Source of the DNA: Eledone cirrhosa
Lineage: Eukaryota
Assembly: GCA_964016885.1 (NCBI GenBank)
Contig: OZ024740.1
Location: 258,974,001 to 259,038,000 of the forward strand
Direction of reading: 5' to 3'
DNA: 64,000 bases
Every line of letters starts with the position of its first letter. Position 1 is the stretch's first letter. Below the pieces are notes generated by a model. It was not told the DNA's origin. It did not search any database and was given only the letters and a program-made list of their open reading frames with translations. A program made the position numbers and the translations under genes. This document shows positions 275 through 62,570 of this stretch, piece by piece.

Positions 275-457
275 AGTTTATCTCGGGTTCAATCGGGGGT
301 AAGCACAGTCAGTAAGGTACTCAATACAAAGCAGAGTATAAATATAGAAAATCTTCTACAGGACTAGAACTGTTTCATTCGTGAAAATCATCAGGAAGCT
401 TGCTGGTGATTTCTCACGAATGAAACAGTTCTAGTCCTGTAGAAGCTCTTCTATATT
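275..457. mobile_element. HHR-bearing fold-back module (PLE pLTR-like) inserted in (TA)n
   Basis: 341-457 is an inverted repeat centred on aagctt. The left arm extends to 275 and carries gtactcaatac. Flanked by (TA)n. Same family at 4007-4052 and 47338-47388. Confidence 0.75.
353..398 (-). ncRNA. Minimal type I hammerhead ribozyme
   Basis: Minus strand reads cttc-CTGATGA-ttttcacgaat-GAAAC-agttcta-GTC-ctgta-gaag. The mirror copy on + (403-445) has a CTGGTGA core. Confidence 0.7.
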
Positions 458-513
458 AAATAAATATATATATATATATATATATATATATATATATATA
501 TATATATATATAT

Positions 514-735
514 GAAGGCGTGTGGCTGAGTGGTTAAAGAACTGGATTCGCAATCGTGAGGTTGTGAGTTCGATTCCTGGAAGGGGCGATGCGTTATTTC
601 ACAGCAAGACACTTTATTTCACGTTGCTCCTTCTACCTGGAGTTGCGACCGATAGATAGATAGTATTAGCAATTGGAAAGACCAGTGGAAACACTGTTTC
701 CTCGGTCCGATTTGACGAAAGTCGATCGTTAGGAA
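514..735 (+). mobile_element. tRNA-derived SINE (octopus OR-like)
   Basis: A-box tggctgagtggtt, B-box gagttcgattcc, TCG anticodon-like loop, then caagacactttatttcacgttgctcc body. Related copies at 9480-9790 and 54350-54505. Confidence 0.7.
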
Positions 736-896
736 TATATATATATATATATATATATATAAAGAGAGAGAGAGCGCGTGACAGAGAGAGAGAGAGAGAG
801 AGAGATAGATAGTTCGCGGTGCTGAGACCGGGAAGACCATTAATTATGGAAGAACTCAATGCATGGGAAGATGCATATATATATATATATATATAT

Positions 897-1172
897 AGTT
901 GTGTATAATGGTAGCTATGGTGCTTCCATAGGCGGTATATCAAATTTACCACTCGATATTCAGCAGAATAGAGTGTAGATAGTATAAAGAAAACGAAAAA
1001 TGTGATAAAATTTGGTCCGAACGAACTACCCGTGTCTGAAGGAACCTGCAGCCGTAGAATCATCCAGATCCATACAGGGACCATGTCTCGAGCTACCTGG
1101 CGGCGAAACAATTGAAACACGCAATAAATTAAGTCCAGATGCATCACTGATATTTCGTTTTCTTTATACTAT
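897..1172. mobile_element. Fold-back module with degenerate HHR
   Basis: Inverted arms atagtataaagaaaacgaaa (~979-998) / tttcgttttctttatactat (~1153-1172). cgtgt-CTGAAGG...GAAAC-aatt-GAA-acacg at 1031-1121, then aataaa. Between (TA)n tracts. Confidence 0.5.
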
Positions 1173-1209
1173 ATATATATATATATATATATATATATAT
1201 ATATATATA

Positions 1210-2116
1210 TAAATTAATAAAAATAATGAATAAACAAAGAAACAGTTCCTTATATTAAAAAATTCATCATTTTACGATCGTTTCTAGGATATATATGTTA
1301 GTGTTGGTATGCATATCATATAGATCTATGTAAAATATTTACAAACTATCAGAAGGAATATACATACCTACACATATATATGCTGTCTTCAGAAATAATG
1401 ATATTTGTTTATTGAAAAAAGCCAACAAAGCTTTAATACAATAGGTCTCTTTGGGAACAGGTTTTGAATTGACCAATAGAAAGATAGTGAAGGTGAAGAT
1501 GGTAAAATAGTAGTAATATAGCCTTAATTTAGGGGTAGAGGAAGGTAGATTTCAATTTTGGATGGAAAGAATATTATGAATGAAAGATTATTTTAGGGAT
1601 GAAAATAGGTGATATGCTGTCTTCCGAAATAATTATATTTATTCATTGAATAAAACCAACAAAGATTTAATATAATAGGTCTGTTTGGGAACAGGTTTTG
1701 AATTGACCAGTAGAAAGGTAATAACTGGCCAAATGGTATAATAGTAGTAATGGAACTTTAATTTAGGGGTTGGTTTTTTTCAATAAACAAATATCATTAT
1801 TTCTGAAGACAGCATATATATGTGTAGGTATGTATATTCCTTCTGATAGTTTGTAAATATTTTACATAGATCTATAGGATATGCATACCAACACTAACAT
1901 ATATATCCTAGAAATGATCGTAAAATGATGAATTTTTTAATATAAGGAACTGTTTCTTTGTTTATTCATTATTTTTATTAATTTATCTTGACTCTGTTTT
2001 CCTGTATTTTTCATCGAAAAATTTTTTTGAATACATCTCTTTTCATGATATTCGGATTACATTGAGTTCTTCATACGGAATGGACACTACCGTACATTTT
2101 GGTAGATTTATCTACA
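1210..2116. mobile_element. Fold-back PLE-like terminus with long-stem-II HHR
   Basis: 1210-1420 is the reverse complement of ~1773-1985. Internal direct repeat ~1378-1540 / ~1613-1770. The right arm continues with attgagttct (2061-2070). Related to 62140-62570. Confidence 0.75.
1264..1401 (-). ncRNA. Type I hammerhead ribozyme with ~100-nt stem II
   Basis: tcattattt-CTGAAGA-[~100 nt hairpin]-GAAAC-gatc-GTA-aaatgatga. Stem I is 9 bp with one G-U pair; stem III region acgatcgt is palindromic. Second copy on + at 1794-1931. Confidence 0.65.
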
Positions 2117-58923: not shown

Positions 58924-59327
58924 TAAGAATAAAAGAAACCACCATTAAATAACATTAAAATTATTTAATTGATTGACGATCGTTTTATATATATATATAT
59001 ATATATATATACACATATACATATATATACATATATATATATATATATACATATATATATATATATATATATATATATATATATATATATATATATATAT
59101 ATATATATATATATATATATATATATATATATATATATATATATATATATATATATATATATATATATATATATATATATATATATATATATATATATAT
59201 ATATATATATATATATATATATATATATATATATATATATATATATATATATATTTATTTATTTATATATATATAAGAATAAAAGAAACCACCATTAAAT
59301 AACATTAAAATTATTTAATTATTTAAT

Positions 59328-59517
59328 AGGGCGGTGGATTGGCAGTATCGGTAGAGAGTCGGATGCCATGCTTTCCAGCATAGTTACGTCCCTTTGCGGT
59401 CTGAGTTCAAATCCCGCCGAGGTTAACTTTGCCTTTCATCCTTACGGGGTCGATAAAATAAAGTACCAGTAATGTACTGTGTAATTGATGGCCCTGTGCC
59501 AAAAGTAGAAACAATTA
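59328..59517 (+). mobile_element. Full-length tRNA-derived SINE
   Basis: Homolog of 10640-10826, flanked by aattatttaat-type repeats (possible target-site duplication). Confidence 0.85.
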
Positions 59518-60124
59518 AAATTATTTAATTGACTATTTAATTAATTTGATCAACACAACAGGGATATTCATTTCTTCTGTTTTGATTTCTTCAGAATCTA
59601 CCAAATAACATAAATATTTACCAAACACATGTCCAAATATTTCAAGTCCCAATATTATATATATATATATTCTTTACGTTGTATGGTTAGATAACAGGTA
59701 GCTGGATTAGTGAGCTAGTCGTTCCGATTAGCAAACCGTGGTGAAATAATCAAGAAAAGCACTCAACATTATGTTATCTTCCATCATAGATATGGTATCT
59801 CGTGGGTGGTACAGGAGTTAAGTACTTCAATGAAAACTATGTGAAGGCCCGATTCCAATAACTTCTTTTATTATTTTATTTTATTATATTCCAGCCTTCA
59901 CTTGTTTTTCATTGAAGTCTGTGTGTGTATATATATAGAGAGAGATAGATATAGATATATATATGTAAATAAATATACACGGGTGTGTATGATTGTTTAT
60001 AAAAGATTATATTAATAAAAGGAATTCCAACTTTGTCTGATTAACTCGTTTTATTTACAATCCTTTAAAATTATAATTATATTATAATGAAATAGTATGG
60101 TAGAATATTAAATGTTAATTGAAC

Positions 60125-61375
60125 ATGATGTGTTTTTTAATTTTTATATGTATTCAAATATACTCTCGTCTTATCTATATATATATATGGAAGGTGTATG
60201 TGTGTGTTTGAAAACAATGTTGTCTCTGATCGAGATAAGACGAGAGTATATTTGAATACATATAAAAATTAGAAAACACATCGCTAGAAGAGCCGTTAAA
60301 ACAGACAAATGCTGTCAAAGAATGCCTCAGAGGATAGAGATCAGCTGCCAGTGGTCAACAGAGAGACAATCTACAAGGTGTGGGACAGGCAGATGAAATA
60401 TAGAAAACATTGAAATAGGAGGGGGACAAGGAGAAGTGTGTTGGCGCACAGAAGTCACCGGAAGAGGAAATAAAGAAAGGTGATGTACAAGTCAAGTTTA
60501 CACACACACTTATCTTCACCCCCATCAGCTCTCAAACAAGCAAAATGGTTTAGCACGATTTAATTGAGAGTACCATTTTAAAATGCTGAATCGTACATTG
60601 GAAAAATAAATCTTTCTGCTGCTATAACGTGTGTGGTAAAAGAAACAGCAGAGATAGAAGGACGACAGAAAACAAAGAAAAGAATAGTAATAAAGGACCT
60701 CAAAGTGGGATATCTATCCTAAATAGAAAACTAATTATAGCTATGATAAAGTTAAATGGAAAAAACAATATTGTCTCTGATCGAAACGAACCGAAATGGT
60801 TTTTGAATACACATAAACATGAGAAACCTGATCGCTAGAACAGCCGTTAAAACACACAAATGCTATCAAAGACAGTGATGGGCAAAAATGCCTCAGAGGA
60901 GAGAGACCAGCGGCCAGTGCTCAACAGAGAAATAATCCACAAGGTGGAGGACAGTCAGGTGAAATATAGGAAACATTGAAAGAGGAGGAAGATAATTAGA
61001 AGTGTGTCGGCGCACAGAAGTGACCGGGAGAAGAAATAAAGATTTATTTTTCGGTTGCACGATCCAGCATTTTAAAATGGTATTCTCAATTAAATCGTGC
61101 GAAACCATTTTGTTTGTTTGAGAGCTGATGAAGATGAGTGTGTGTAAACTTGTTTTGTACATCGTCTTTCGTTATTAACTCTTCCTGTAATTCTGTTCGT
61201 CAACACACTTTTCCTGTCCTTCCCCTCTTTCAATCTTTTCTATATTTTATCTGCCTCTCTCCCACCTTGTGGATTGTCGCTCTGTTCTCCGAGACATGTT
61301 TGCCTATCACTGTCTTTGACAGCATTTGGTTGTTTTAACGGCTGTTCTATTGCTGATTTTTCTCAATTCCATATG
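60125..61375. mobile_element. Nested direct and inverted copies of one interspersed repeat
   Basis: Copies at ~60205-60615 (+), 60765-61040 (+) and 61040-61375 (-). Short inverted arm 60128-60176 / 60233-60281. Confidence 0.75.
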
Positions 61376-62139
61376 TGTATATATATATATATATATATAT
61401 ATATATATATATATATATATATATATATATATATATATTCTAATACTTGGGGAGGGTCATATTGTTATAATATTGCCGGAAATAATAACAGAACACACTC
61501 ACTGTTTGGTTTGGGTTGGTATATCTTCTGTATCTTTTATATCTCCATAGTTAATTTATCTGGCAATCAATGTTTATCATTAACGGTTAAAAATACAGAT
61601 ATAAATATATATATATATATAAATATATATATAGTCTAACAAAGTTCTTTCGTCACACATCTGTGACATCATCAGTGGTACTATCATGTTTCCTCCCATT
61701 GTATTGTAATGCCTACGCCATTTTTATTTTATTTACTTACGCACACAAAGAAAAATCAGAGAAGAAAAAATTGTGCATTTATGATTTTGACCGAGAGACG
61801 AACGAAGCAGTGTGCCGCTACACTGCTTCGTCGTCTCTGAGTGAAGCTGCCTGGGTCAAGCTAAGTTCTATGCACTCACGGACAGTATACAACATATGGG
61901 GGAGGGGGACTCATGACCATATCTAGTAGAGAAAATTTTGGTTTAAAAAATTTTAGAAGCCAGAGTTAGGATTAATTTTAGAAATTGGAAATTAAAACTG
62001 AGTGTTTAAAAGTTTTTTGAAGCTTAATCAAATAAGTAGAGTTCGCACAGTTGACTGGTGTATATATATATATATATATATATATATATATATATATATA
62101 TATATATATATATATATATATATATATATATATACACAC

Positions 62140-62570
62140 AGAGGTATCCACTGTAAGTTGTGGGGTCTATTCTGTATGAAGAACTCAATGTAATCCATAT
62201 GTTGAAAATGTTGTAGGTTAAGATCAATCTCAGAAAACAATAAAACATTAAAAGGAAAACAGAGTCATTATATAAGTTAAAACAATGAAATAAAAAATCA
62301 AGTCATTAGAGAAACAGCTGGTGATATGCATGTAAGTAAATATTCTCTCTATCTGAAAGTTTGTAAACTTACATAGATCAATAACTGAGTATAGATACAA
62401 TGTATTATTACCATCTAGAAACGATCGTAAAGCAATGAAGTATATCTCTAATGACTTGATTTTTTATTTCATTGTTTTAACTTATATAATGACTCTGTTT
62501 TCCTTTTAATGTTTTATTGTTTTCTGAGATTTATCTTAACCTACAACATTTTCAACATATGGATTACATG
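62140..62570. mobile_element. Fold-back PLE-like terminus related to 1210-2116
   Basis: Arms 62189-62312 / 62445-62568; ctagaaacgatcgtaaa at ~62415-62431; gaagaactcaatgtaatcc tail. Confidence 0.8.

Follow-up and report, generated by a model that had tools for sequence, protein, structure and literature searches.

The window examined here is a stretch of 64,000 nucleotides (nt) from Eledone cirrhosa (contig OZ024740.1, positions 258,974,001 to 259,038,000), a host whose genome of 3.0 Gb is rich in microsatellites, and it is packed with short modules bounded by (TA)n repeats. A sequence-only reading of the window had listed 15 sites at which otherwise dissimilar modules share a box, T(T/C)GAGYNCT, close to a (TA)n junction, and had proposed it as a conserved cis signal in the tail, or 3' extension, of Penelope-like retroelements (PLEs). 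All 15 sites were found, with positions agreeing within ~1 nt, and several are repeats of the same family: those at 33500, 36611, 48285 and 55229 belong to one, those at 36477 and 40122 to another, and those at 2061 and 62180 to a third. The analysis indicates that the box forms the 3' arm of a bulged hairpin, predicted for the RNA, of which PLEs of the Hydra clade have two copies in their 5' leader, each 6-10 nt behind one of the two (TA)n junctions, and that each copy likely binds one subunit of the reverse transcriptase (RT) and sets the start of internal priming, a reading that we hold at a probability of roughly two in three.

At 55184-57938, the window holds a truncated copy of family A, a tandem unit of 3531 bp of which an intact example lies at locus L131. 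Its protein of 716 aa carries within one open reading frame (ORF), as judged from motifs, an RT (YRDD at 348) followed by a C-terminal GIY-YIG endonuclease (VIYQ/YIG at 591/606), together with DKTG at 117, where DKG is changed to DKT, the CxCX5C linker CNCPDRSIC at 572, which is also found in families D and F39, and RWR at 37, a conservative variant of the Hydra motif RWK. The endonuclease contains CNLCSEE and N...CKH (CxxC and CxH next to the catalytic residues E and N), and no cysteine pair of the CCHH type was seen between GIY and YIG when the family A protein was read by eye. A type I hammerhead ribozyme is predicted in the pseudo-long terminal repeat (pLTR) from inspection by eye of a core and of stems II and III, without a score from Rfam, the core being a U3-A8 variant as in PMC4209133. 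A C-terminal GIY-YIG domain, DKT, CxCX5C, a hammerhead in the pLTR, insertion into (TA)n, inverted pLTRs and a tail at one end only are traits described for the Hydra clade in PMC8557442, and all of them occur here. The differences are that tails measure 60-170 nt against 30-40 nt there, that the family A unit, with its long 3' untranslated region, reaches 3.5 kb against a size of <3 kb that PMC8557442 gives as a tendency only, and that the passages of that work at hand describe no element beyond the hammerhead. The carriers had been taken for Naiads, in which GIY-YIG is N-terminal and precedes the RT; with their endonuclease at the C-terminus, they are by sequence Hydra-clade PLEs instead. 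Nor are the carrier families unrelated, as had been supposed: eight other hairpin-bearing references from this genome show 38-54% protein identity to family A and form one clade with it, and 10 rows from other hosts stand apart at 35-42% in a quick tree of own-genome and other-host relatives. Since the carriers fall in one protein clade, the hairpin motif is inherited. Their tails, however, give no alignment outside the motif (one of 91 pairs at z>4). A Pfam search of the intact family A protein gave no match, and no relative was found among the viral contigs searched.

The distribution of the box was measured in the window plus 1 Mb of unselected stretches of the same genome (10 places on 10 contigs; 1.06 Mb in total). 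Matches to the strict box are most frequent at 50-59 nt before (TA)n, with 22 in 898 clean junction flanks, where the reverse-complement box has none in that bin; outside the window, 16 matches were found in 785 flanks. Because a single cluster of 18 copies dominates the matches, the flanks were dereplicated, after which the box lies at 35-100 nt in 12 of the 545 clusters from outside the window, against a mean of 1.4 and a maximum of 6 in 100 dinucleotide shuffles. At 35-65 nt it was found in five of these clusters (shuffles: mean 0.6, maximum 3), and at 135-200 nt in one. The anticipated enrichment near (TA)n is therefore real, and 10 of the 12 box-bearing clusters have an upstream RCTC able to pair with the box. 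The claim of a near-fixed distance between box and microsatellite fared worse, as this distance ranges from 44 to 93 nt in 15 family references (mean 65, standard deviation 13) and from 36 to 96 nt in the window. The fixed spacing is that of the junction 5' of the hairpin, and the distance from box to microsatellite is merely the length of the tail.

Read across families, the conserved unit is not the linear box but a covarying hairpin, RCTC-stem-loop-stem-T(T/C/A)-GAGY-NCT (mostly ACT or GCT after GAGY), in whose lower stem ACTC partners GAGT and GCTC partners GAGC, with a 2-nt bulge above and loops of 2-67 nt, the long ones being of 61-67 nt. The full four-pair lower stem is present at 11 of the 15 sites, and 35833 shows a GCCC/GAGC variant; the boxes at 4935, 35938 and 40122 have lost the 5' arm to truncation or inversion, and the families of the last two carry it elsewhere. 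When the outer pair is left free, 24 matches are found at 35-110 nt in 623 junction clusters and four at 120-195 nt. Among those 24, the outer pair is A-U in 11, G-C in six, G-U in three, U-A in one, A-C in none and unpaired in three, and 30 shuffles gave a mean of 2.3 matches in all and 0.27 for A-U plus G-C. In a set of 33 hairpins with short loops, drawn from this genome and from other hosts, 22 changes affect both sides, where shuffles give 7.0 (none of 500 reaches 22), although this support is overstated, as the descriptor that chose the set demands pairing and its members are related. The outer pair in this set is G-C in 24, A-U in seven and G-U in two, the first upper pair U-A in 18, C-G in 13 and other in two, and the bulge TT in 21, TA in nine and TC in three. 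The upper-stem test was for that reason rerun without the pairing filter, and the 51 cells of 17 upper stems anchored on RCTC and TNGAGY only contained 36 Watson-Crick pairs, eight G·U, no A·C and seven others. The presence of G·U and the absence of A·C in these unselected stems suggest that folding of the sense RNA is favoured. A model of the hairpin (R2) recovers 10 window sites at E <0.05, several of them from its training set, and misses long-loop and truncated copies. The hairpin matches no Rfam family, the sole match of an Rfam scan of the window being a transfer RNA (tRNA)-like stretch at 5856-5926, and readings of the box as a tRNA B box, a splice signal or a selenocysteine insertion sequence do not fit. 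It is not part of the hammerhead core either, as the hairpin lies at least 30 nt past the cleavage site, outside stem I, and is present twice.

The full unit comprises, in order, the hammerhead, site 1 (the end of the pLTR), the first hairpin (H1), the tail, site 2 (the end of the tail), a second hairpin (H2) and, 8-60 nt further on, the ATG. H2 is present in families A, B, C, D, E, F50, F43 and G; it was met blind in G and found through an H2-specific pattern, not blind, in C, D and E, and the patterns for F50 and F43 demanded CTC and GAG, with one family continuation in 6 of 8 and 6 of 6 rows. Full-length copies of F50 run from H2 into a Hydra ORF, and tailed copies of family G outside the window carry H1, and L234, its full-length copy, has H2 together with a Hydra ORF. 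Site 2 precedes H2 by 6-10 nt in all eight references and shows in each of them a TA-matching patch of 3-6 nt (chance of at least 3: 4%). Contigs from an independent run have their (TA)n loose ends at L131 5816 and 5896 in family A, just before H1 (5822) and H2 (5900), and at L234 2399 and 2493 in family G; in the same run, the summed depth of family A drops ~90-fold beyond site 2. Among the common family A variants listed, all fall in loops or flanks save one C-G to U·G change in H2. Genome-wide, the H1-type pattern gives 12,190 matches against 217 for the reversed control, and the H2-type pattern 349 against 23, a rarity that fits H2 being seldom copied into DNA. From the original proposal, the conserved cis signal in the PLE tail is thus retained and its link to RT recognition or priming is probable. 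Its geometry has to be redrawn, with the hairpin spaced to the 5' junction and a second copy behind the end of the tail that is almost never copied into DNA.

The ends of inverted insertions offer further hints about how the two sites are used. With family F44 excluded for lack of a usable reference, 157 ends were mapped to 16 references, 65 of them to site 1, 62 to site 2 and 30 elsewhere, mostly to internal TA runs. Both ends lie at a site in 28 of the 45 adjacent inverted pairs, and 27 of these clean insertions combine site 1 with site 2, one uses site 2 twice and none uses site 1 twice (p ~1e-7). In 12 insertions of family A, the two arms copy overlapping or disjoint stretches of template, and the site-1 arm often extends further 5' than the site-2 arm. 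These extents contradict fold-back copying as the origin of the second arm and show that the template was copied twice, independently. The short inverted arms of family A often stop at one place, a small palindrome in the loop of hammerhead stem II (L131 ~5752-5757), which is the arm junction.

The most likely pathway would start with an RT protein, dimeric by analogy to the Poseidon RT of Anolis, holding both hairpins of one RNA; the Poseidon protein cleaves both strands and extends them, initiates internally at two sites that bound the tail and is a predicted dimer (PMC11167929). The endonuclease would cut both strands of (TA)n, and each cut 3' end would anneal to the UA patch that lies directly 5' of a hairpin and then be extended, the hairpin anchoring the RT subunit 3' of its start site. 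Copying from site 2 would cross H1 and produce a tail with the box, copying from site 1 would omit H1, and H2 would stay uncopied. Finally, the two complementary DNA (cDNA) ends would be joined head to head, the region 5' of site 1 having been copied twice, perhaps by strand displacement or by use of both pLTR copies. Separate RNAs would not yield strictly mixed ends, so that a single RNA bearing both anchors explains them most simply. A bolder version, which we regard as tentative and somewhat short of even odds, is that Hydra elements program twin priming: two equivalent hairpins on one RNA would dock the subunits of an RT-endonuclease dimer and place a patch of 3-6 nt under each cut (TA)n strand, in the manner of a telomerase-like anchor with a short template, here in the group of retroelements nearest to telomerase, and any RNA with both hairpins would be inserted in trans, as the non-coding derivatives described below suggest.

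Several observations weigh against this reading. We infer the RT role of the hairpins from their position and from analogy, and the start sites of Poseidon are reported to lack a match to the target (PMC11167929). Considering all 23 sites, at least 2 TA-matching bases are present in only 16 (chance 10%), the offsets of site 1 scatter from -12 to +3 in families with one or two copies, and at the 35833 hairpin, contrary to the spacing rule, the short end lies within the 5' arm. In 17 of the 45 inverted pairs, an end lies at neither site, mostly at internal TA runs, and these pairs were omitted from the count of mixed ends. H2 is imperfect in F39, a search for it in F51 gave no match, it often has just one or two upper pairs and, given its position shortly before the ATG, it may have a role in translation. 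The hairpins are weak, with z-scores of -0.4 to -1.7 for the folding of leaders; the sense strand has only a slight advantage over the antisense in pair probability (0.72 vs 0.66), and in two of six leaders the fold of minimum energy has the 5' arm of H1 paired to the 3' arm of H2. This latter pairing (L131 5822-5921; L135 58-140) may represent a two-state switch.

Such a switch by arm swap, as well as the presence of both copies in the 5' leader with H2 shortly before the ATG, would suit operator-like protein sites for translation repression or capture of the own RNA, with the UA patches alone setting the starts, near the hairpins because the protein is there. This proposal is compatible with RT anchoring, but as a replacement for it we consider it unlikely: the hairpins keep a tight spacing to the junctions, whereas their distances to the ATG and to each other vary, non-coding derivatives retain the hairpins at the same offsets, and the AT-rich leaders hold many UA patches that are not used. 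Constant 5' spacing would be equally expected of a measured cut and of a measured start, and the hairpin could instead cause the RNA to be cleaved or terminated a few bases upstream of it, followed by ordinary priming at 3' ends, two RNA species giving two kinds of ends. Read ends in Anolis RNA sequencing do coincide with start sites (PMC11167929). However, two separate RNAs would pair randomly, and not give mixed ends in 27 of 28 insertions, and Poseidon starts internally on unprocessed RNA in vitro (PMC11167929), which makes cleavage a distinctly unlikely explanation.

A role at the level of DNA, as a site for the endonuclease or a transcription factor, an internal promoter element or a hairpin of the cDNA strand, appears quite improbable. 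The arms do form a spaced inverted repeat, the Penelope tail has been reported as necessary for endonuclease recognition of plasmid DNA (cited in PMC11167929), and PLEs have internal promoters at the boundary of pLTR and leader (PMC8557442). Nevertheless, a spacer of 2-67 nt, an asymmetric 2-nt bulge and the 8 G·U and 0 A·C of the sense strand suit a folded sense strand and not a duplex or cDNA, and H2 would set site 2 although it is not copied. Highly improbable, too, is that the hairpin is simply a remnant of common descent, or a product of chance in AT-rich repeats, and has no function today: all carriers come from one clade, and one abundant family gives many of the matches in the window, yet the tails around the motif can no longer be aligned, the paired columns covary across families (35-54% protein identity) and hosts, and the listed common variants of family A fall in loops. 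Anchoring of the RT by the hairpins remains our preferred reading.

The hairpin is not restricted to Eledone, as twin copies also occur in Hydra elements from other animals of the sea. Metagenome and symbiont-bin contigs, that is, animal DNA in microbial assemblies, yielded 22 loci with 10 informative families, of which eight show the exact motif, two show variants (L141 and L200, the latter with a compensated GCAC/GTGC in H2) and seven have twin copies before the ATG. Loci L193-L206 are animal Hydra-clade elements within bacterial genome bins, a contamination by host DNA. Among six Hydra consensi read by eye in the supplement of PMC8557442, the hairpin is exact in Hydra-2_Amil, Hydra-2_Ajap and Hydra-1_Ajap (twice) and a variant in Hydra-1_Crog (twice) and Hydra-1_Amil, the hosts being coral, sea cucumber and copepod; it was not seen in Hydra-1_Obim. 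Four 7-mers looked for in the same supplement, with 28 of 54 places viewed by eye, disclosed no hairpin at element ends in Naiad or Chlamys consensi, which is a weak test.

Two families of non-coding derivatives carry the hairpins as well. Family E (~2.6-2.8 kb; L151 and L192), with many copies, contains a hammerhead, a long-loop H1 and H2. Family F43 (L215-L217), also present in the window, forms a tandem array whose units of 609-612 bp contain three Hydra hairpins as well as a hammerhead-like core, and from its sequence looks like a retrozyme driven by Hydra elements. The TA-targeting family of Neptune/Nematis type (CxxxxCxxC, CCHH; window 61439-61604; L269, L273 and L277) has a tail of ~58 nt without the RCTC/GAGY hairpin. 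Both start sites of that family open with ATATCG, perhaps a repeated signal of its own. Neptune-type PLE fragments (CxxxxCxxC, CCHH) also occur at 25353-26600, with a hammerhead core at 26482, and at 37622-38199; among eight copies examined of the end near 26600, none was tailed. The neighbouring end at 27618 is not Neptune-type and belongs to Hydra family G. TA-ending families outside the named set (block C1, 24705-24863; block C5, 57661-58061) have tails of 34-65 nt with a different, GTGT/CAC-type hairpin.

Table 1. Hairpins and Hydra-clade element parts in the window (positions of the 64,000-nt stretch)
Feature	Family	Position	Strand	Remarks
H1	F51	319..337	-	ACTC/GAGT, 3-bp upper stem, 3-nt loop; insertion 275-463, tailed end at 275, tail-less end at 463
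H1	F50	951..974	-	5-bp upper stem; insertion 898-1169
H1	F39	1991..2067	+	61-nt loop; insertion 1212-2115
3' arm alone		4935..4943	-	5' arm lost at inversion point
Short inverted pLTR pair		around 4935..4943		Hammerhead stem III on + strand
pLTR	G	27532..27618	+	Hammerhead core and tail-less (site 1) end
H1	A variant	33483..33506	+	
H1	C	34883..34902	+	Insertion 34616-34965, with its left end at site 1 and its right end at site 2
Variant hairpin	outside named families	35815..35839	+	GCCC/GAGC, one mismatch
3' arm alone	F43	35939..35947	+	
H1	B	36438..36483	+	GCTC/GAGC, 32-nt loop; insertion 36097-36521
H1	A	36614..36637	-	Insertion 36566-36765
3' arm alone	B	40122..40130	-	Truncated
H1	A	48288..48311	-	Insertion 48239-48439
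Inverted pLTR	A	55184..55416	-	80-nt tail; H1 55232-55255; site 2 end 55184
Hydra-clade ORF		55416..56686	+	5'-truncated, frameshifted; RT then C-terminal GIY-YIG
Type I hammerhead (predicted)	A	57843..57938	+	Long stem II; stem III ends GTC 57926-57928; tail-less end at (TA)n
Degenerate H1	outside named families	59761..59818	-	ACTC/GAGT, a single upper pair and a loop of 46 nt; 96 nt between box and (TA)n
H1	F39-like	62183..62265	-	67-nt loop
H1		63833..63853	-	GCTC/GAGC, TA bulge; 16th copy, absent from the sequence-only reading

The variant hairpin at 35815 adjoins a 176-bp tandem unit on a long palindrome (35455-35805). Elsewhere, the window contains an L1/Tx1-like non-LTR element (11214-16356), whose ORF2 has RVT_1 and zf-RVT domains, broken pieces of a PIF1 helicase, probably from a Helitron (48835-51747), and two homogeneous tandem arrays with long open frames, one of 119 copies of 42 bp (16712-21694) and another of 50 copies of 57 bp (28500-31356). 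Finally, tRNA-like heads of short interspersed nuclear elements (SINEs) adjoin (TA)n runs at 5856-5926 and 514-640.

Small bulged RNA stems that fix the start of an RT are known from the 3' stem-loops of long interspersed nuclear elements (LINEs), SINEs and R2, from hepatitis B epsilon and from the anchors of telomerase RNA, and non-coding partners borrow the enzyme. Those stems act once per RNA, mostly at or within the copied 3' end, whereas here two copies lie outside the primed stretch, one per target strand, so that the likeness is one of design and not of sequence. In the twin priming of L1, both target strands prime cDNA and head-to-head inversions result, the second site being opportunistic; in Hydra elements, the second priming site is fixed and marked by a second hairpin. 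Poseidon of Anolis shares with them the two RT starts that bound the tail, the extension of both strands and the predicted dimer, and its protein-binding region is undefined within 172 nt. Its starts lie in an AC-rich stem-loop without homology to the target, and the passages of PMC11167929 at hand name no conserved binding motif, whereas each site here has a short UA match and, 3' of it, its own covarying hairpin. Metazoan non-LTR retrozymes (PMC7229834, PMC7761336, bioRxiv 10.64898/2026.07.22.740005) are non-coding tandem units with a hammerhead-like core, like F43 (612 bp); PMC7761336 states that they have no conserved motif hinting at their driver, whereas F43 carries three Hydra hairpins. 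No description of the hairpin was found in full-text literature searches, a scope beyond which lie Repbase entries, subscription papers and the supplements of PMC11167929. It is a cis element of a known clade, real, conserved across phyla and apparently undescribed.

The choice of start site and the one-ended tail are an open question in the biology of PLEs, as the sole in vitro study narrowed the protein-binding region without disclosing a motif (PMC11167929). A covarying element of 20-25 nt, one per start site and found from corals to molluscs, offers a precise hypothesis that can be mutated in the existing assay. The hairpin would also be a minimal RNA for structural work on a relative of telomerase. 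Moreover, it marks the true boundaries and start codons of the elements for annotation, and it names the likely driver of non-coding, retrozyme-like repeats.

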